Assembly: GCA_964650755.1 (NCBI GenBank)
Contig: CAZYUN010000019.1
Span: 677-11,642 of the forward strand
DNA length: 10,966 bases
Source: an uncultured Gammaproteobacteria bacterium
Lineage (GTDB): Bacteria > Patescibacteriota > Patescibacteriia > 2-01-FULL-39-33
Direction: 5' to 3'
This document shows, piece by piece, positions 2,245 through 10,966 of this stretch. The translations under genes were made by a program, and so were the position numbers. Every line of letters begins with the position of its first letter. The stretch's first letter is position 1. Under the pieces are notes generated by a model that was not told where the DNA came from, ran no database searches, and was given only the letters and a program-made list of their open reading frames with translations.

Positions 2245-2309
2245 AAAAACAATAATATTAATTATAATACATTTTTTCAAAATTTTAGTCAAAATAATAT
2301 TTTGCATTC

Positions 2310-2351
2310 CTAATAAAAAAATAAAAAAAGTCCGCTCACGAAGAGCGGACA
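2310..2351 (-). terminator. Rho-independent terminator for the 149-aa gene.
   Basis: An 8-bp GC-rich stem gtccgctc/gagcggac (2330-2337 / 2343-2350) with loop acgaa. On the minus strand it is followed by TTTTTTTATTTTTTTATTAG (complement of 2310-2329). It lies 25 nt downstream of the stop at 2376. Confidence 0.7.
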
Positions 2352-2375
2352 AGAAGGTTCTATTTAAGTCAAGCA

Positions 2376-2825
2376 CTATGGCCTGGAATTTTCAGTCAAA
2401 AATTTGTGACGATGGCGCGCCGATGCCCAATGCTGATAGTATTCTGACAAGTCGGGACGATGCGCCAAATCCAATATTCGCCTGACCATATGCAAAATCT
2501 CCAATTGATCCACATTACCAGTTAAAACAACCGGTCTAAATTCTTTTGCGATATTGATATCATTATAAAAAATGTCAATATTAACATTTGATTGATGCGC
2601 TCTGAAAATCTTAAACACTAAGCCATCATTAGATGACTCCAACAATCTGAATTCTATCTCAAACAGATCTTCCAACTGAAACGTCTCTACTCGCATGAAT
2701 TGCGCGGATTTCAAGCTTTGACGAACTTTCGTAGCGAATTCTTCAGACATTAACATTCTTTCGAATAACCAATCAATCAAACGTTTTGTGCCTTCTTTCG
2801 GCAATTCCAGTTTGTCTTGTGTCAT
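2376..2825 (-). CDS. Hypothetical protein (149 aa), no recognisable family. GC is modestly elevated at about 39%.
   Basis: Complete ORF. Canonical SD AAGGAG sits 7 nt upstream of the ATG (complement of 2826-2845 reads tggctaaaaAGGAGtatttccATG). It has its own strong terminator. The C-terminal region 'RRILDLAHRPD' loosely matches a HEPN-like Rx4-6H motif, but that is not diagnostic. Confidence 0.6.
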   Translation of the reverse strand: MTQDKLELPKEGTKRLIDWLFERMLMSEEFATKVRQSLKSAQFMRVETFQLEDLFEIEFRLLESSNDGLVFKIFRAHQSNVNIDIFYNDINIAKEFRPVVLTGNVDQLEILHMVRRILDLAHRPDLSEYYQHWASARHRHKFLTENSRP

Positions 2826-2979
2826 GGAAATACTCCTTTTTAGCCAATTTTGGCGATTTTGACCGCGGTTTAAAGAACTATTGAGACAATAATTATATCA
2901 CTCCTAACAAAAAAAGTCAAGTTATTTGAAATCATAAACAAAAAAATAAAATAAAAATTATCTAATTTTAAACAAAAAT

Positions 2980-4430: not shown

Positions 4431-5148
4431 TTTTATTAATTTTATAATTTAAAAATTTTTTTCGTTGATTTTCAGAAAAACGCTCTATGGCATATCTTAA
4501 GGTTGTTCTGGGCATTATTTCAATATGTTTCCATAAAAAATCTTCTAAATCCAAAACGCTAACTCTTTTGCCACTCTCCCGCAACATCCAGCCAATCGCT
4601 TTATGTATTAAATCATGTTTATCTTTTAATAATTTCTCAGCTATTTCAAAAGTTAAAGAATTAACCCCTTGACGCAAATGATAAAAAGTTGAAACTATCG
4701 CGATTCTTTTTAGCCACAAAGATTTTTTATTAGCTAATAATTTTAAATCCGGTTGCTTAAAATGAAAACTGCAATAACCAACAATATCATAAGCGGTCAA
4801 ATCAACCAAATCCCAATTATTAATAAATTGATAGTGTTTTAAATAAAAACGACATAATTTCTTCTTGTTAATATTATCAGCTTTTTTAAACTGATCCTTA
4901 ATTATTAATAAAGCGACTAATCTCTCTTCGTGATATTTGCTATTTAATAATTTAGAACAATCACTTAATTTTAAATTAAAAAATTTTTTAGCAACCCTTC
5001 TTTGTTGAGGTACTGTAATGCCCAAAAAAACATCACCCTCAGCATATTCTCCCTTGCCTGTTTTAAAAAACTTTTGAAGAATCTTTGCTTTTTGGGGATT
5101 AGCTAAAGATATTAATTCTGATTTTAATAATTGTAAATCGGAACTCAT
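4399..5148 (-). CDS. DNA alkylation repair enzyme, AlkD/AlkC-like HEAT-repeat DNA glycosylase family (249 aa).
   Basis: The N-terminal 'NPQKAKILQKFFKTGKGEYAEGDVFLGITVPQQRRVAKKF' closely matches the conserved opening of the DNA_alkylation (PF08713) family. Length and helical-repeat character also fit. No SD. Confidence 0.7.
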   Translation of the reverse strand: MSSDLQLLKSELISLANPQKAKILQKFFKTGKGEYAEGDVFLGITVPQQRRVAKKFFNLKLSDCSKLLNSKYHEERLVALLIIKDQFKKADNINKKKLCRFYLKHYQFINNWDLVDLTAYDIVGYCSFHFKQPDLKLLANKKSLWLKRIAIVSTFYHLRQGVNSLTFEIAEKLLKDKHDLIHKAIGWMLRESGKRVSVLDLEDFLWKHIEIMPRTTLRYAIERFSENQRKKFLNYKINKNENKSITTST

Positions 5149-5190
5149 AATAATTTATAACTATTTAATAAAAAACAAAAGTTTGTTTTA

Positions 5191-7743
5191 TCAAAGTCCA
5201 TATTTATTATAAAATTTATTTTTACCCCATTCAACAATCACAAAATAAATAAGACTAATACCGATAATAGAAGATAAAATCCAAACTGGTATAGGCTCAA
5301 AACCTAAAAATCGACCAATAGGAGCATAAATAAATAAAAAAATAATCAATAGAGTTATAAATGACGATAATAACAAAATATTAGCAGGACGACTCTTAAA
5401 AAATATTCTTTTTGTTCTAATAACAAAAATTAACAAAACCTCAGTTAAAAAAGATTGCCAAAACCAGCCGGTTTGAAAAAGTGGCATTGTAGCTTTAGCA
5501 ATTAAAATTAAAAAAATAAAGGTAATAAAATCAAAAAAAGAAGAAACTAAACCAAAATAATTCATAAATTTCTTTATATGATTAATGTCCCACTTCTTGG
5601 GATTATTAATTGATTCTTCATCGACATTATCATAAGCAATAGACAACATTGGCAAATCACTTAAAAAATTAAGCAATAAAACTTGAATTGGCAACATTGG
5701 AATAAATGGCAAAAATATTGAGGCCCCAACTACAGAAAACATGTTGCCATAATTAGAAGCAATGGTGCAAATTATATATTTCATTGTATTATTAAAGTTT
5801 CTACGCCCCCCACGAATTCCCTCAATTAAAATTGGCAAACTTTTTCTAAGTAAAACAACATCAGCAGCTTCTCTGGCTATATCTGTAGCTGAATTAACAG
5901 AAATACCCACATCAGCCATCTTAAGTGCGGGCGCATCATTAATACCATCACCCAAAAAAGCAACGCTATGACCAGTATCTTTTAATGCTTTGACGATTTT
6001 TAATTTATGTTCAGGAGTAACTTTAGCAAAAACATCAAAATCACTAACTACTTTTTGCAATTCTAAATCAGATAAGCCACTTAATTTATTACCAATAATT
6101 GCCTTAGGATTTAAAAAGCCGGTCTGCTTGGCTAAAAATAAAGCCGAGCCCAAAGAATCACCCGTTAATAATTTAATAGATACCCCCAAATCTCTAAAAG
6201 CATCTAATGATTTTTTAGAGCCTCTTTTTGGTGGATCATTAAAAACCAAAAAACCACTAAAAATTAAATTTTTTTGATTATTTTTTTTACTCTCCGATTC
6301 TAAATAATCATAAGCAACCAATAAAACTTTAAAACCTGCAGATTCAAGATTTTTTATTTTTTGTTTAATATTATTTAAAAAATAACTTATTTTTCTTTTT
6401 TTTCCATGGTATAAAATATAAGTACAAGCATCCAAAATTTCTTCAACCGCACCCTTAACAATTATCTGTGGTAATTCGTTATTAGACTTCACCACAACAC
6501 TCATTATCCTCTTATTAAAATCAAAGGGGGTGATGTTAATAAAACTATAATCTTTAATTTTCTTTGTTAATTTATGTTTTTTTGCATAATCAATAATAGC
6601 TTCATCTAATGGATTAGAAAAAGATTCGCCATTTTTTAAACTTAAAGAATTACATAATTGCGATAAAGTTATTAAATAATCATCTTGCACATCATCTAAA
6701 TCAAAATAATTATATAATTCTATTTTCCCCTCGGTTAATGTTCCCGTTTTGTCAGTACATAAAACATCAGCATTGCCTAAATTTTCAACTGCCATTAACT
6801 GTTTAACAATAACTGATTTTTTAGCCAAATTTCTAGCGGTCTGAGATAAATTTATAGTAATAATCATTGGTAATAATTCGGGCGATATACCAACAGCGAT
6901 AGCTAAAGAAAACATTAATGCTTCCAACCAATTACCCTTTAAAAAAGCAAGAAATAAAAAAATTAATAATGTAAATAAAATAATTATTTTAAATAAGAAA
7001 AAACCAAAACTATTAATGCTTTTTTGAAATTCCGATTCATTTTTTGAATTCAACAATAATTGTGAGTTTTTGCCAAATTCAGTATTTAAGCCAGTAGCAA
7101 CAACAACACCCAATCCTGAACCCTGAATAATATAAGTTCCCATAAAAACCAAATTTTTCATTATTTGTGGTAAATAATCACGAACAATTTGTGGATTAGA
7201 ATTTTTTTCAACCGGAAATGATTCACCGGTCAATGAAGATTCATCAACTAATAAACAATTTGATTTAACCAATCTAATATCTGCTGGCACAACACCACCA
7301 GCACTTAAAAAAACCATATCTCCAACAACTACATCAGTTACATGGATATTTATTTTTCTACCATCCCTAAAAACCCAAACATCCGAAGAAACTCTTTTTT
7401 TTAATAAAGAAATTGTTTTTTCGCTTTTATATTCTTGATAAAAAGAAAGACAGGAAGATAAAAATATAATAATAAAAATAATAAAAGTAGAAAGAAATTC
7501 TCCCAAAAAAAACGAAACTACTAATGCTAACAACAAAATTAAAATTAATGGATTTTTAAATTGTTTAAAAAAAATTTGAAAAATCATGGGCTCACCATTA
7601 TTACCAATGATGTTAAATCCATACTTGTTTAATCTGGATTTTGCTTCACCCTGAGAAATACCAGCAAATGAAGTATTAAAAACAGACAAAATATCATCAA
7701 CCCCTAACTCCCAAAAGGGTTTTATTGTTTTAATTTTAGACAT
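5191..7743 (-). CDS. Cation-transporting P-type ATPase (850 aa), MgtA/Ca2+-ATPase-like (P2/P3 type).
   Basis: Phosphorylation-site motif 'CTDKTGTLT' and actuator 'TGES' within 'VDESSLTGESFPVEK'. Also 'TGD' and hinge 'GDGINDAPALKMADVGISV'. About 10 transmembrane segments. The N-terminal 'ILSVFNTSFAGISQGEAKSRLNKYGFN' is a typical cation-ATPase N-domain. Size and the 'ES.PVEK' motif resemble Mg2+-importing MgtA. Confidence 0.85.
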   Translation of the reverse strand: MSKIKTIKPFWELGVDDILSVFNTSFAGISQGEAKSRLNKYGFNIIGNNGEPMIFQIFFKQFKNPLILILLLALVVSFFLGEFLSTFIIFIIIFLSSCLSFYQEYKSEKTISLLKKRVSSDVWVFRDGRKINIHVTDVVVGDMVFLSAGGVVPADIRLVKSNCLLVDESSLTGESFPVEKNSNPQIVRDYLPQIMKNLVFMGTYIIQGSGLGVVVATGLNTEFGKNSQLLLNSKNESEFQKSINSFGFFLFKIIILFTLLIFLFLAFLKGNWLEALMFSLAIAVGISPELLPMIITINLSQTARNLAKKSVIVKQLMAVENLGNADVLCTDKTGTLTEGKIELYNYFDLDDVQDDYLITLSQLCNSLSLKNGESFSNPLDEAIIDYAKKHKLTKKIKDYSFINITPFDFNKRIMSVVVKSNNELPQIIVKGAVEEILDACTYILYHGKKRKISYFLNNIKQKIKNLESAGFKVLLVAYDYLESESKKNNQKNLIFSGFLVFNDPPKRGSKKSLDAFRDLGVSIKLLTGDSLGSALFLAKQTGFLNPKAIIGNKLSGLSDLELQKVVSDFDVFAKVTPEHKLKIVKALKDTGHSVAFLGDGINDAPALKMADVGISVNSATDIAREAADVVLLRKSLPILIEGIRGGRRNFNNTMKYIICTIASNYGNMFSVVGASIFLPFIPMLPIQVLLLNFLSDLPMLSIAYDNVDEESINNPKKWDINHIKKFMNYFGLVSSFFDFITFIFLILIAKATMPLFQTGWFWQSFLTEVLLIFVIRTKRIFFKSRPANILLLSSFITLLIIFLFIYAPIGRFLGFEPIPVWILSSIIGISLIYFVIVEWGKNKFYNKYGL

Positions 7744-7748
7744 AAATA

Positions 7749-8561
7749 TTAATCATTCCTTAATAATGATAAAATATCTTTTATTTTTTTATTGGTCTCA
7801 TGCCAGCCCGCTTCAACTATTTGATTTTCACTTTTTTTCAAAAAATAATCACTCCATTTAGAATATTGTGATAAATTAGGTTCAATAATAATATCACTGT
7901 ATTGCATTGATAATTTAGATAGATTTTGTCGTAATAAATCCATAGTCCTAATACTAATATCAATTAATTTTGGTTTTTGAATATTAAGATTTAATTCTCC
8001 ACGATGATCTAAATTAACTGAAATAATAATATCGGCCCCCATTTGTTTCAATAAATCATCCGGCACCGGATCAGAAATACCACCGTCAGCCAAAAGTTTA
8101 CCTTCAAACACAACCGGCCGAAAAACACCCGGTACCGCCATACTGGCACGACACGCAAAAGCCAAATTACCGGTTTTAAATATATATTGTTCGCCACTAA
8201 TCAAATCGGTTGTGGTAATAGCCATGGGAATTTTTAAATCAGTAAAATTAGCATGATTTAACCAAACATCCAGCATTGACTCTAATTTATTTCCACCAAC
8301 TAAACCGCCACGTAATTTTAACTCTAAAAAACTAAGTAGTTTTTCTTTTTTCTTGCCAACCGTAAAATCTCTTAATAATTCCACATCTTGAAACAAAGCA
8401 TAATGAGCGCCAACCCAAGAACCAATACTGGAACCGGCTATTAAATCAATGGGGATATTATTTTCTACCAAAGCTTTAATCACTCCAACATGTGCCAAAC
8501 CTCGAACCCCACCACTACCTAAAGCCAAGCCAACCTTCTTGTTATACTTATTATTTAACAT
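7749..8561 (-). CDS. Patatin-like phospholipase (RssA/YjjU-like, 270 aa).
   Basis: Oxyanion-hole 'GSGGVRG', nucleophile elbow 'GSSIG' (GxSxG) and catalytic 'ADGGIS' (DGG/DGA Asp) lie in canonical order and spacing. It ends 5 nt before the ATPase start codon, which implies co-transcription. Confidence 0.85.
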   Translation of the reverse strand: MLNNKYNKKVGLALGSGGVRGLAHVGVIKALVENNIPIDLIAGSSIGSWVGAHYALFQDVELLRDFTVGKKKEKLLSFLELKLRGGLVGGNKLESMLDVWLNHANFTDLKIPMAITTTDLISGEQYIFKTGNLAFACRASMAVPGVFRPVVFEGKLLADGGISDPVPDDLLKQMGADIIISVNLDHRGELNLNIQKPKLIDISIRTMDLLRQNLSKLSMQYSDIIIEPNLSQYSKWSDYFLKKSENQIVEAGWHETNKKIKDILSLLRND

Positions 8562-8641: not shown

Positions 8642-9142
8642 TTAATTATTTTTTTGTGCTTCAAGATCAACCCACTGGAGTGGCAAATGCATCCTGCCCA
8701 CCTCTCCTCGATTATAAAGCCAAACACCATTTCCTAAACCATTGAATTTAATACCGTGATAAAAATTCTTAGTTTCAGCAAAAGCAACCAACTCTTCATT
8801 ATACAATTCAAAAACATAAACACCAGAACCAACAACTGCACCGCCATGATACATTACGGCGATTTTGGTTGAGTCCTTAGACCAAGCTATGCCCTTTAGA
8901 TCATTGGCATAACGAATATAAGGCAAAACATTCCAATCATAAGCAAAAGATCCGCCACAACCAAAGCGCTTAAAAACGCCTATTTGACCGGTACCAATCG
9001 GCTGAATTTCACGAGCATAAAACAAGCCATTAGGCGAATAAGCTTTGGCACCAATCGGAACAGAACCATCAAAAGAATTGACATTAGCCGAGCAACCAAG
9101 CAACAAAAAAATCATCAAACACAGCAACAATTGGATTTTCAT
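8642..9142 (-). CDS. Lipoprotein of unknown function (about 166 aa from the ATG at 9142). GC is elevated at about 40%.
   Basis: The track ORF begins at a TTG at 9163. The ATG at 9140-9142 is preferred because GGAG sits 7 nt upstream (aGGAGaccaaccATG). That start gives MKIQLLLCLMIFLLLGC-SANVN, a classic signal peptidase II lipobox (L-L-G-C). The mature part is Gly/Tyr-rich and probably beta-rich ('YDWNVLPYIRYANDLKGIAWSKDSTKIAVMYHGGAVVGSGVYVFELY'). No family recognised. Confidence 0.65.
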   Translation of the reverse strand: MKIQLLLCLMIFLLLGCSANVNSFDGSVPIGAKAYSPNGLFYAREIQPIGTGQIGVFKRFGCGGSFAYDWNVLPYIRYANDLKGIAWSKDSTKIAVMYHGGAVVGSGVYVFELYNEELVAFAETKNFYHGIKFNGLGNGVWLYNRGEVGRMHLPLQWVDLEAQKNN

Positions 9143-9212: not shown

Positions 9213-9240
9213 CCCCAATCAAAAAAAAGTCAAATAAAAA
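9213..9240. repeat. Direct repeat copy 1 (ccccaa...aaaaagtcaaataaaaaa). Its partner lies at 10871-10894.
   Basis: The 18-nt string aaaaagtcaaataaaaaa occurs exactly at 9223-9240 and again at 10875-10892. Both copies are preceded by cccc(a)a a few nt upstream. Together the copies bracket the flotillin gene and its leader. Confidence 0.5.
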
Positions 9241-9270
9241 AGCGTGGGTCTGAATTTACAGACAACCACG
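9223..9270 (-). terminator. Rho-independent terminator for the flotillin gene.
   Basis: On the minus strand the stem gcgtgg+gtctg (9241-9251) pairs with cagac(aa)ccacgc (9258-9270) around loop aattta. It is immediately followed by UUUUUUAUUUGACUUUUUUUU (complement of 9220-9240). It lies 17 nt past the flotillin stop (9287-9289). Confidence 0.7.
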
Positions 9271-9286
9271 CATTGAGTCAAAGAGC

Positions 9287-10642
9287 TTATTTGCTGGCTT
9301 CCGGGGCGACGGGGGCGCTCTCCACGGGAGTGACCGGCTTAACCGGATTGACACCGAGAGCAGACAAGATCGCTTGGCCCATGGGGGTCTGAGCCACCCC
9401 TTCAATCATCGAGCCCAACTCGGTTCCGCCTCTGGAGCTGAAGAGCTCCATAACGCCCTTCACACCATCACCGGGGCTACCCGCATTGGAGATGACCCTG
9501 ACTTCCGCTTTCTGCAACGCCTTGGCCTGCTCAACCCCGACCTGAATGTGGGCCTTGATGGCCTCAATCGACACGAGGTAGCGCTGATACCCATCATTGG
9601 CACCAATCTCCTTGGCAAGAGCAATTGATGCACTAACAGGCACCATTTGCATGGCCGATTCGGCTGTGGCTTTCGCTTCACCGATGGTCTTGATGGCTTC
9701 CGCTTCCTTGAATTTGGCTTCGAGCTCACCCTCAGCGATAATGACGCGAGTCCGCTTACCCTGCTCGGCGGTGACAATCTCTTTCTCCTTTTCAATTTCT
9801 GCAGTACGAACCGCCAGAACACTGGCCACATCCATCTCGCGCTGCTTGGTCACCTTGGACTGAGCCAAGACCTCCTGTTGCGCTTGCTGGTTGGCGATAC
9901 CAACGGCCCGATCTTTCTCGGCGGTCCGCTGACCGATCATCTCCTCGGCTTCCTGACGGCAAACCTCCACTGTGCGCGTAGCTTCGATTTCCGCCGTTTC
10001 GGCAGTCTGATTATTATTCGCAACTTCGCGCCTGGATTCCATCTGAATTTGCGAGGTTTTCTTTGCCATGATATTTTCAACCACGTTACTATTGCTACAG
10101 TCGCGCAGATCCATAAGCTCCATAGATTTGACCGCTTCAAGACCCCACTCCTGCAACTGATCCCTAACCTCGGCGGTAAATGCATCACCAAATTGGGAAC
10201 GCTCAACCATGATTGTGTCAATAACACCCGAAGCCAAAACCTTACGCACAGCACCCCGCACAATCACTGTTGCCTGATTTTTGAGTTCTTCAAAGCTGGA
10301 AATACGTTGTGCCGCTTTCGCCGCATCCTGAATACGAAAAAATGCAGTAACATCAACCATAAATGGAACCCTGTCCCTATCATACGCATCATAACTCTCA
10401 AGAGATATATCAAAATTACTAATCGGCAACCGAATAACCGTTACACCAAACATCGGGATTGCTGATGGCCACGCATAATACACATTGCCAGCGACCTGCC
10501 CCGTTCCGTATGGGGTTGTCTTGCGACGACTTTGGACAATATGCACCATATTGGTACTCACCACTCGCCGAAACTTGATTGATATCAAGAAAGACAAAAA
10601 CCCAACAAATCCCAAACATCCCAGGATTGCGATCATACTCAT
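9287..10642 (-). CDS. Flotillin-like SPFH/band-7 domain membrane protein (451 aa), similar to FloT/YuaG and YqiK. Compositionally foreign at about 63% GC.
   Basis: The N-terminal hydrophobic anchor (MSMIAILGCLGFVGFLSFLISIKF) is followed by an SPFH core ('VPFMVDVTAFFRIQDAAKAAQRI...ATVIVRGAVRKVLASGVIDTIMVERSQFGDAFTAEVRDQLQEWGLE'). A long Ala/Glu-rich coiled-coil tail with EA-type repeats follows ('AEIEKEKEIVTAEQGKRTRVIIAEGELEAKFKEAEAIKTIGEAKATAE'), which is the defining flotillin architecture. AAGGAG lies 7 nt upstream of the ATG at 10642. GC counted over 9301-9500 is 126/200, against about 28% in the neighbours. Confidence 0.85.
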   Translation of the reverse strand: MSMIAILGCLGFVGFLSFLISIKFRRVVSTNMVHIVQSRRKTTPYGTGQVAGNVYYAWPSAIPMFGVTVIRLPISNFDISLESYDAYDRDRVPFMVDVTAFFRIQDAAKAAQRISSFEELKNQATVIVRGAVRKVLASGVIDTIMVERSQFGDAFTAEVRDQLQEWGLEAVKSMELMDLRDCSNSNVVENIMAKKTSQIQMESRREVANNNQTAETAEIEATRTVEVCRQEAEEMIGQRTAEKDRAVGIANQQAQQEVLAQSKVTKQREMDVASVLAVRTAEIEKEKEIVTAEQGKRTRVIIAEGELEAKFKEAEAIKTIGEAKATAESAMQMVPVSASIALAKEIGANDGYQRYLVSIEAIKAHIQVGVEQAKALQKAEVRVISNAGSPGDGVKGVMELFSSRGGTELGSMIEGVAQTPMGQAILSALGVNPVKPVTPVESAPVAPEASK

Positions 10643-10710
10643 CCATTTTCTCCTTTTTCTTTTCTTTTTTTGCTAAACTTCCAACCCACCTTAGGTTAGA
10701 ATACAGCTCA

Positions 10711-10764
10711 GAAAAAACCCCTCAATAAAATGATAGATTTACTCTGAGCTGTATAGAAGTCCAA
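10711..10764. promoter_or_regulatory. A 12-bp perfect inverted repeat (atacagctcaga ... tctgagctgtat) with a 30-nt spacer, in the flotillin 5' leader.
   Basis: Read directly from the sequence: 10711-10722 pairs with 10753-10764. It lies about 70-120 nt upstream of the flotillin ATG on the transcribed (minus) strand. No U-tract follows, so it is not a classic terminator. It may be a leader structure or a dimeric protein-binding site. Confidence 0.35.
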
Positions 10765-10803
10765 CAAAAGAACTTTTAAAGACCTTTAATTTAGGTATAT
10801 AGC

Positions 10804-10832
10804 AACATAGCAGATTAAATTAAATTTGTCAA
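10804..10832 (-). promoter_or_regulatory. Putative sigma70-like promoter for the flotillin gene.
   Basis: On the minus strand, TTGACA (complement of 10827-10832) is followed by a 17-nt spacer and then TATGTT (complement of 10804-10809). This would give a leader of about 155 nt containing the inverted repeat. Motif match only. Confidence 0.3.
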
Positions 10833-10870
10833 GTAGGTACAAATTTAAATATTTTGTTTCCTACTTCTAA

Positions 10871-10894
10871 CCCCAAAAAGTCAAATAAAAAAAA
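10871..10894. repeat. Direct repeat copy 2, lying 10-30 nt from the 3' end of tRNA-Asn.
   Basis: Exact 18-nt match to 9223-9240, extendable to ccccaaaaagtcaaataaaaaaaa. See copy 1. Confidence 0.5.
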
Positions 10895-10903
10895 TCACCG
10901 GAA

Positions 10904-10966
10904 CTCCGCGAACTGGATTCGAACCAGTAACCTACCGGTTAACAGCCGGTTGCTCTACCATTGAGC
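10904..10966 (-). tRNA. tRNA-Asn (anticodon GUU). Partial: D-arm to discriminator are present and the 5' acceptor strand lies beyond the window end.
   Basis: The reverse complement reads GCTC-AATGGTA-GAGC (D-arm), A, ACCGG-CTGTTAA-CCGGT, AGGTT (variable loop), ACTGG-TTCGAAT-CCAGT (T-arm with TTCGAAT loop), TCGCGGA + G (discriminator). In the anticodon arm U33-GUU-A37 gives anticodon GUU. CCA is not encoded (TTCC follows). Confidence 0.85.

Follow-up and report, generated by a model that had tools for sequence, protein, structure and literature searches.

How does a bacterium with an AT-rich genome come to carry, beside a tRNA gene, a lone gene whose 3′ end is GC-rich? The question is raised by contig CAZYUN010000019.1 (assembly GCA_964650755.1), of which we analysed a stretch of 10,966 nucleotides, positions 677 to 11,642 (hereafter the window). 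On its minus strand the window carries a gene for a flotillin-like SPFH/Band 7 protein, which lies between a tRNA-Asn and a gene for a lipoprotein-like protein (Table 1). The original prediction, made from these letters without database searches, was that this single gene had been acquired horizontally, very recently and without amelioration. From the observations below we conclude, with a probability of roughly 80%, that the flotillin-like SPFH gene, with its promoter, its structured leader and its terminator, is a horizontally acquired single-gene transcription unit in a Patescibacterium of the Parcubacteria group. This is an ordinary kind of transfer event, older and less traceable than first proposed.

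Evidence for this conclusion comes from an empty site. As predicted, the unit is bracketed by an 18-nucleotide perfect direct repeat, which is above chance expectation (two matches arose in 0 of 200 shuffles, even with 2 mismatches allowed); in the related carrier contig L002 the repeat is perfect over 26 nucleotides and imperfect over ~42. We scanned metagenome contigs for the 3′ half of this tRNA-Asn and obtained 15 loci. In the relative L087, the gene order is rpoD (98% amino acid identity to that of L002), tRNA-Asn, one copy of the repeat, the lipoprotein gene (82%) and the patatin gene (86%), and the flotillin gene is absent. Joined end to end, the left flank, a single repeat copy and the right flank of the occupied locus reproduce the sequence of L087 exactly, so that the insert amounts to 1,651 bp with a single open reading frame (ORF), the SPFH gene. 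L087 is an outgroup, with ~80% nucleotide identity to each carrier versus 85–99% among the carriers. Either the 1,651-bp insertion took place after L087 split off and before the carriers diverged, or L087 lost the unit by recombination between the repeats. The original prediction had pointed to related genomes as the place to look for an empty tRNA-Asn locus; L087 supplies it and, with the bracketing duplication, supports a single-gene horizontal acquisition at this place.

We observed the exact protein and close variants of it on five further contigs (L001–L005) from five different samples and from different pipelines (Logan, ENA). In all of them tRNA-Asn, leader, gene, terminator and repeat recur with the same gene downstream, and both junctions are identical. 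These contigs bear on the possibility that an assembly chimera joined a GC-rich to an AT-rich contig, a mis-join that had been named as grounds for refuting the prediction and for which nothing speaks but the abrupt change of composition where the gene begins and ends. The recurrence of junctions, leader and tail in all five contradicts it, as do the non-coding ends of the insert, which are AT-rich like the host, and the matching empty site, which displays a precise duplication; a chimera is refuted for practical purposes. In L002, whose flotillin is 86% identical in amino acid sequence to that of the window, synteny runs through dnaG, rpoD, tRNA-Asn, flotillin, lipoprotein, patatin, P-type ATPase and onward, and the flotillin gene has 50.8% GC within a 33% GC contig. 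Because the rpoD of L002 is nearest to Parcubacteria-group and Candidatus Buchananbacteria sequences (73–81% identity), we assign the host to the Parcubacteria group.

The same comparison bears on the age of the event. The cassette stands, with the same composition, at the same place in lineages that are 10–15% diverged in their flanks, and is absent only from the L087 outgroup. Identity between the window and L002 is itself a mosaic, with 100% over the ATPase and 82–92% elsewhere, which indicates a recombining population in which the cassette is fixed at this place. The event is older than the split of the sampled carriers, and later than, or reversed in, the lineage with the empty site. The description "very recent, un-ameliorated" is not supported by this distribution, nor by a codon usage that is partly host-like.

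The window as a whole has 33.8% GC and the host genome 31–34%, while the flotillin-like gene has 51.8% GC, with a GC content at third codon positions (GC3) of 0.56 (0.34–0.76 by block). The other nine ORFs of the window range from 27.7 to 39.5% GC and from 0.18 to 0.41 in GC3, and no other gene in the 11-kb window or in 21 kb of L002 exceeds a GC3 of 0.41. The composition follows a gradient, from 42–47% GC in the 5′ part of the gene to 59–64% at its 3′ end, where GC3 reaches ~0.75. The predicted value of 63% was correct for positions 9301–9500, for which it was given, but does not extend to the whole gene, whose third positions are not overwhelmingly G or C; likewise, the neighbours are AT-rich as described, but their measured range differs from the 25–33% first given. 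Codon usage is mixed. Codons of the type favoured in GC-rich genomes are prominent in the gene relative to the host (GCC/GCG 67% vs 27%, CGC/CGG 48% vs 9%, CAG 70% vs 18%, and TTA 0% vs 54%; AAG also belongs to this set), and the same gene contains the host-like codons GAT, AAT, TTT and GGT, a mixture that fits partial amelioration.

It is very unlikely that the gene came recently and unchanged, straight from a high-GC donor of Actinobacteria- or Proteobacteria-like composition. The composition of the 3′ end would suit such a donor, and direct transfers are seen elsewhere in the family (L014/L066 with Bdellovibrionales and Rhodobacterales, dS ~0.4, where dS is synonymous divergence); against it stand the whole-gene GC3 of only 0.56 with its many host-like codons, the shared site in diverged lineages, and the AT-rich leader common to relatives in AT-rich contigs. 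Moreover, no homologue outside the clade exceeds 69% identity. The nearest outside homologues (64–69% amino acid identity) come from other AT-rich, Patescibacteria-like contigs, where their neighbours are unrelated; they are themselves GC-elevated, and several of them have the same AT-rich promoter and leader. The proposed donor group is not supported by these matches. We infer instead that the cassette probably came directly from another Patescibacterium, or from a pool carried by phages, with the same AT-rich promoter and leader, and that the codon signature of the coding region, which is GC-rich but intermediate and partly ameliorated, goes back to an earlier source of higher GC content.

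The promoter, Shine-Dalgarno sequence and strong intrinsic terminator that the original prediction attributed to the unit were all located. The promoter is kept upstream of the homologues L068, L069, L090 and L091. The leader folds with −50.4 kcal/mol (z = −5.6), and RNAalifold found compensatory changes in 10 of 43 pairs. L068 and L069 have the same promoter and the same three-helix leader structure, with compensatory changes, and a covariance model built on four sequences (R1) recovered L090 and L091, on which it had not been trained; it gave zero instances in 60 or more other family loci. In the alignment of six leader sequences, 96.7% of cells are paired versus 41–53% in slid controls, double changes occur in 10 pairs (0–3 in controls), and the covariation score is 0.37 versus 0.06–0.11. 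We regard the leader, on this covariation, as a candidate new regulatory RNA. Nothing in Rfam 15 reached its gathering threshold against the leader, and the only match at E ≤ 1, Plasmodium RUF1, was rejected as spurious (17.8 bits against a gathering score of 70). The long hairpin of the leader holds a small stem followed by a U6 tract, as in a terminator, and the predicted fold leaves the Shine-Dalgarno sequence free. With 35% GC in the window and 32–41% across instances, the leader is AT-rich, and its region begins at the inner edge of the repeat; promoter, leader and gene therefore move as one unit. At the other end, the U-tract of the terminator (9236–9241) coincides with the first 6 nucleotides of the distal repeat copy. 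The terminator is invariant in L001–L005; a terminator scanner missed the hairpin owing to a 2-nucleotide bulge, and folding confirmed it.

Visualizing the relatedness of the family as a neighbour-joining tree, we observed that the Patescibacteria copies are polyphyletic. The family is strongly conserved, with 50–69% identity across phyla. Across 62 named genome loci, every host below 50% GC has a gene whose GC content exceeds that of the flanks, by 1–18 points, while in hosts above 60% GC the gene equals its flanks or falls slightly below them. The Patescibacteria copy L014 is 88% identical in amino acid sequence to the Bdellovibrionales copy L028 (dS 0.39), and L044 and L052 are separated by a dS of 0.42; judged by sequence divergence, such cross-phylum pairs with dS ~0.4 are recent transfers within the family, and the family is transfer-prone. 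Among these copies, those of Patescibacteria/Kaiserbacteria (L014, L066; gene 60–63% GC, flanks 44–45%) are 86–91% identical to the Bdellovibrionales copy at dS ~0.4, and Nomurabacteria copies (L044, L055; 59% GC against flanks of 40–43%) share 89% identity with the copy on L052, a contig of 61% GC.

Phages also carry the family. A full-length homologue, mostly annotated as hypothetical, is present in 51 phage genomes at 46–51% identity, in phages of Xanthomonas, Vibrio, Brevundimonas, Ralstonia and Erwinia; three IMG/VR contigs also carry homologues, and phage copies overall are 46–56% identical. The T5-like Vibrio phage AG74 carries its copy within the tRNA gene array, 33 nucleotides after a tRNA-Ile. 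None of 72,556 plasmids in a plasmid collection carries the family, and among the other Patescibacteria loci adjacency to a tRNA (L006 and L014 only) is not above chance expectation. AT-rich phages and bacteria carry AT-adapted copies, with a GC3 of 0.17–0.31. Since such members exist, the GC-rich coding of the window's gene reflects history and not a requirement of the family, and an intrinsic GC requirement was rejected on this ground.

We stress that several results weigh against acquisition as we propose it. There is one outgroup only, and gain in the carriers and repeat-mediated loss in L087 both fit it. The best outside match among 5.8 billion protein clusters is the 69% noted above, and no donor was found. 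The family tree is a neighbour-joining tree without support values. The leader-sharing relatives, all in AT-rich contigs, keep a GC3 of 0.56–0.68 despite saturated dS among those tested, which simple amelioration does not predict. Substitutions in the gene, polarised among three lineages, show only a weak excess of GC-to-AT (31) over AT-to-GC (21) changes, where naive decay toward a GC3 of ~0.2 would predict ~7:1. Finally, no integrase was found, the repeat lies off the tRNA, and 26–42 nucleotides are too long for ordinary transposase duplications.

Some of these points would suit a native, long-resident gene whose GC-rich coding is kept by selection (on mRNA structure or codon choice) or by GC-biased repair, and which L087 lost by repeat recombination. 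The five leader-sharing cassettes in AT-rich contigs at a GC3 of 0.56–0.68 (dS of at least 1.5 where tested) and the distance of the substitutions from ~7:1 speak for it, and repeat-mediated deletion would yield precisely the structure of L087. We nevertheless find this account unlikely. The AT-adapted family members show that GC-rich coding is dispensable, codon usage is a mixture with no coherent preferred set, and the Patescibacteria copies are polyphyletic, with some transferred recently. Nor is the substitution spectrum of the gene clearly unlike that of the host (p = 0.5 over all sites and 0.03 at third positions, by a biased method); the host-gene control, polarised with L087, gave 60 AT-to-GC and 36 GC-to-AT changes, and parsimony and recombination bias affect this test, on which we base no claim of maintained GC. 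A repeat that brackets exactly the compositionally odd unit still demands an insertion.

For the acquired unit, the insertion took place ~12 nucleotides downstream of the tRNA-Asn, into the upstream region of the lipoprotein-like gene, and duplicated, or recombined across, a segment of ~26–42 nucleotides that now brackets the insert. The tRNA-Asn is on the same strand as the flotillin gene and its 3′ end (10904) lies 262 nucleotides upstream of the start, in agreement with the predicted distance of about 260 bp. ARAGORN found no tRNA in the window, whose edge truncates the gene; it was identified with Rfam and from the relatives, and the complete tRNA-Asn (74–76 nucleotides) stands in the same position in L002–L005. 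As an attachment (att) core, the repeat does not overlap the tRNA 3′ end. Integrase or recombinase domains are lacking in the window and within ~10 kb on either side in L002, as had been predicted for an accompanying mobility gene. Because the cassette has no recombinase of its own, we infer that either a factor acting in trans or the host's own repair or recombination brought about the integration and a long duplication with it; no other step of the account is as weak. The hypothetical circle-junction sequence of the cassette would read …CCCACGC, the repeat, and then GGGGTTAGAAG….

Islands beside tRNA genes form with integrase-mediated att duplication. The locus resembles them in its position on the 3′ side of a tRNA, its direct repeats, deviant composition and empty site, and in the different cargo found in a relative; it differs from them in having no integrase or remnant, in a repeat that begins 12 nucleotides past the tRNA, and in a size of only 1.65 kb with one gene. 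Phage morons are autonomous units of promoter, gene and terminator with odd composition, and here too there is an own promoter, a single ORF, an own terminator and an odd composition, along with homologues in 51 phages; unlike a moron, however, the cassette stands among cellular housekeeping genes and not in a prophage, and the phage homologues are only 46–56% identical. An integron gene cassette consists of a promoterless ORF with a 3′ attC in an array next to intI. The present unit departs from that plan in its own strong promoter, its ordinary terminator and the absence of intI nearby (attC was not searched with a dedicated model).

We also considered a non-autonomous, moron-like mobile unit of an undescribed kind, which would insert into intergenic regulatory DNA with target duplications of 26–67 nucleotides, depend on a trans-acting enzyme, and be spread by phages. 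The unit is self-contained from promoter through leader and ORF to terminator, leader and gene recur together in contexts that have nothing else in common, and phages carry homologues, one of them within a phage tRNA array. Long direct repeats flank the gene at three further, independent loci (L043, 52–55 nucleotides; L016, 67; L071, ~55), where they are unrelated in sequence; these recurrent repeats hint at an insertion route without an element-encoded recombinase. Set against this, flanking repeats do not rise above noise at ~53 other loci, there is no candidate enzyme, the phage copies are more distant members of the family, and ordinary illegitimate or homologous recombination could produce such repeats. 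On balance we think such a unit conceivable but not probable. A wider proposal, of a recombinase-less mobile cassette circulating among Patescibacteria, possibly via large phages, whose ~110-nucleotide three-helix leader would represent a new class of cis-regulatory RNA and control the gene of a membrane scaffold, is put forward only tentatively and with equally low expectation.

The history of the acquired gene did not end with its insertion. Residues 1–60 and 211–451 group with L068, L090, L069 and L091, while the SPFH core (residues 61–210) groups elsewhere; the core of L002 is 82% identical in amino acid sequence to those of L071, L006 and L008, and 72% identical to the core of the window. 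After insertion, the SPFH core was swapped with foreign alleles by homologous recombination, and an intragenic mosaic of this kind explains the GC gradient along the gene.

The protein belongs to the SPFH/Band 7 family by its match to Pfam PF01145 over residues 44–215 (E = 2.5e-17; 63.9 bits, cut-off 23.6). Its AlphaFold2 model, of moderate quality overall (predicted local distance difference test score 66; 80–90 in the SPFH part), comprises a transmembrane helix, the SPFH domain and a long helical hairpin. The predicted N-terminal helix (residues 2–23) is hydrophobic (MSMIAILGCLGFVGFLSFLISI) and is followed by the strands and helices of the SPFH domain (25–181) and then by helices at 187–265, 276–348 and 350–378, which would give the protein flotillin length. 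In Foldseek comparisons, 408–440 of the 451 columns aligned only with the flotillin-1/2 complexes 9bq2 and 9l3g (18–20% identity); coverage was ~220–300 columns for stomatin, HflK/C, QmcA and prohibitin. At the sequence level, Band_7 is the only Pfam family at E ≤ 0.01, no NCBIfam family and no flotillin-specific sequence model is matched, and searches of PDB sequences and with phmmer gave only weak SPFH matches, to QmcA and an archaeal stomatin; homologues are labelled "flotillin" by the Joint Genome Institute. The protein presumably forms a membrane-anchored, oligomeric scaffold of the SPFH/flotillin type.

Prokaryotic flotillins (SPFH2, such as B. subtilis FloT/YuaG and E. coli YqiK) usually have an NfeD/YuaF-like partner, and 17 genomes with a partner-less SPFH2 were counted in a 2009 survey (Hinderhofer et al. 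2009, PMC2636767). The modelled protein is like them in its N-terminal anchor, SPFH/Band 7 domain, long coiled-coil region and full-length flotillin alignment. It is unlike them in being encoded by a single-gene unit and in its low identity to solved flotillins: no NfeD/YuaF-like gene is adjacent, the neighbours being the tRNA-Asn upstream and, downstream, the lipoprotein-like gene, which is also present at the empty site. The survey inferred lateral transfer and a patchy distribution for SPFH genes, mostly with no GC or codon trace of transfer (PMC2636767). The family described here is likewise patchy and shaped by lateral transfer, but its compositional trace at this locus is strong.

Dependence on hosts and on the uptake of DNA is generally assumed for Patescibacteria. 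The locus documents a base-pair-resolved gene gain in a Patescibacterium for which occupied and empty sites are both known. In the relative L088 (rpoD 88% identical, same upstream synteny), the same rpoD and tRNA-Asn are followed by a type I restriction–modification/Fic/SduA island, which makes the site downstream of rpoD/tRNA-Asn a variable hot spot in this lineage. One flotillin-like SPFH family crosses phyla and enters phages, which bears on how ultra-small cells gain membrane-organising functions, and the covarying, conserved 5′ leader may be a new regulatory RNA, a proposal that can be tested. We found no paper linking flotillin with Patescibacteria. A study of horizontal gene transfer and genomic islands in Patescibacteria describes a restriction–modification island in another genome, and its text does not mention SPFH, Band 7, stomatin or flotillin (PMC12455944). 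Our case resembles that study in that a streamlined Patescibacteria genome gains a gene at a variable locus, with a restriction–modification island in L088, and goes beyond it in that an empty site fixes the event to the base pair.

Table 1. Coordinates of the features of the cassette, its insertion site and related loci. Positions are those of the window unless another locus or accession is named.
Feature	Position	Strand	Remarks
SPFH/Band 7 flotillin-like gene, 451 residues	9287..10642	-	Transmembrane helix 2-23; SPFH domain ~25-181; helical hairpin 187-378 (predicted)
Recombinant patch in the gene, SPFH core (gene nucleotides 181-630)	10013..10462	-	~24% different from the L002 allele; remainder of the gene ~5%
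tRNA-Asn (GTT), 3′ two-thirds, 5′ end cut at window edge	10904..10966	-	RF00005, 53.6 bits; no encoded CCA
Direct repeat, tRNA-proximal copy (minus strand TTTTTTATTTGACTTTTT)	10875..10892		Begins 12 nucleotides past the tRNA 3′ end (discriminator base)
Direct repeat, distal copy	9224..9241		Contains TTGACT, a −35-like hexamer upstream of the next gene
Sigma70-type promoter of the cassette, TTGACA-17-TATGTT, TG before −10	10804..10832	-	10/12 matches, best in region
Structured 5′ leader, ~110 nucleotides	10664..10773	-	Outer stem around a long hairpin (internal GGGGUUUUUU) and a second hairpin
Shine-Dalgarno sequence GGAG, 7 nucleotides before ATG	10650..10653	-	Read from sequence; kept in L004/L005
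Intrinsic terminator hairpin of the cassette	9242..9271	-	−16.8 kcal/mol, z = −2.7; then U6
Host lipoprotein-like protein gene, 166 residues (MKIQLLLCLMIFLLLGC...)	8642..9142	-	Translation; its upstream region is the place of cassette insertion
Leader instances	L068 127-256; L069 4751-4860; L090 112-219; L091 3401-3510		Covariance model / alignment
Long direct repeats around the flotillin-like gene, L043	9766-9817 / 11335-11389		52-55 nucleotides; duplicated terminator hairpin
Long direct repeats, L016	9676-9742 / 11338-11404		67 nucleotides
Long direct repeats, L071	8454-8512 / 10151-10201		~55 nucleotides; promoter-like segment
Phage homologues (L097, L098)	OQ427096.1 8909-10273; MT460514.1 76782-78161		

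The neighbourhood of the cassette and its relatives yielded some further observations. The 166-residue lipoprotein-like protein has no Pfam or NCBIfam match. In L088, the island (10000–17344, of which only the near end is seen) occupies the place of the flotillin cassette and has HsdM/S/R, Fic and an SduA_C (Shedu-like) gene, and a group I intron (RF00028, 84.3 bits) splits the tRNA-Asn (9577–9841) directly behind the anticodon. Some 7 kb upstream, the genes for a TrwB/VirD4-type coupling protein and for a DUF8128 protein are conserved between relatives (L002 892–2811, L088 906–2804); they belong to the Patescibacteria type IV secretion-like apparatus and lie outside the insert.

Within the flotillin-like gene, long antisense ORFs, for example 9647–10465 on the plus strand, were disregarded as an expected by-product of GC-rich DNA. 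Upstream of its start, an out-of-frame ATG at 10646 opens a 75-residue ORF overlapping the flotillin start (window 10701–10754 and 10646–10419), which is probably non-functional, since the ATG is missing in L002. A second variable spot, only 60–71% identical to L002, lies at window positions 2274–2845 and spans a 149-residue ORF (2376–2825) and the start of a GT4 glycosyltransferase gene, whose product has 450 residues here and 406 in L002. Conversely, ~2.8 kb over the P-type ATPase gene (5046–7845) are 99–100% identical to L002 between flanks of 82–92%, and this near-identical stretch is, as far as identity can tell, the signature of a recent recombination or a population sweep.

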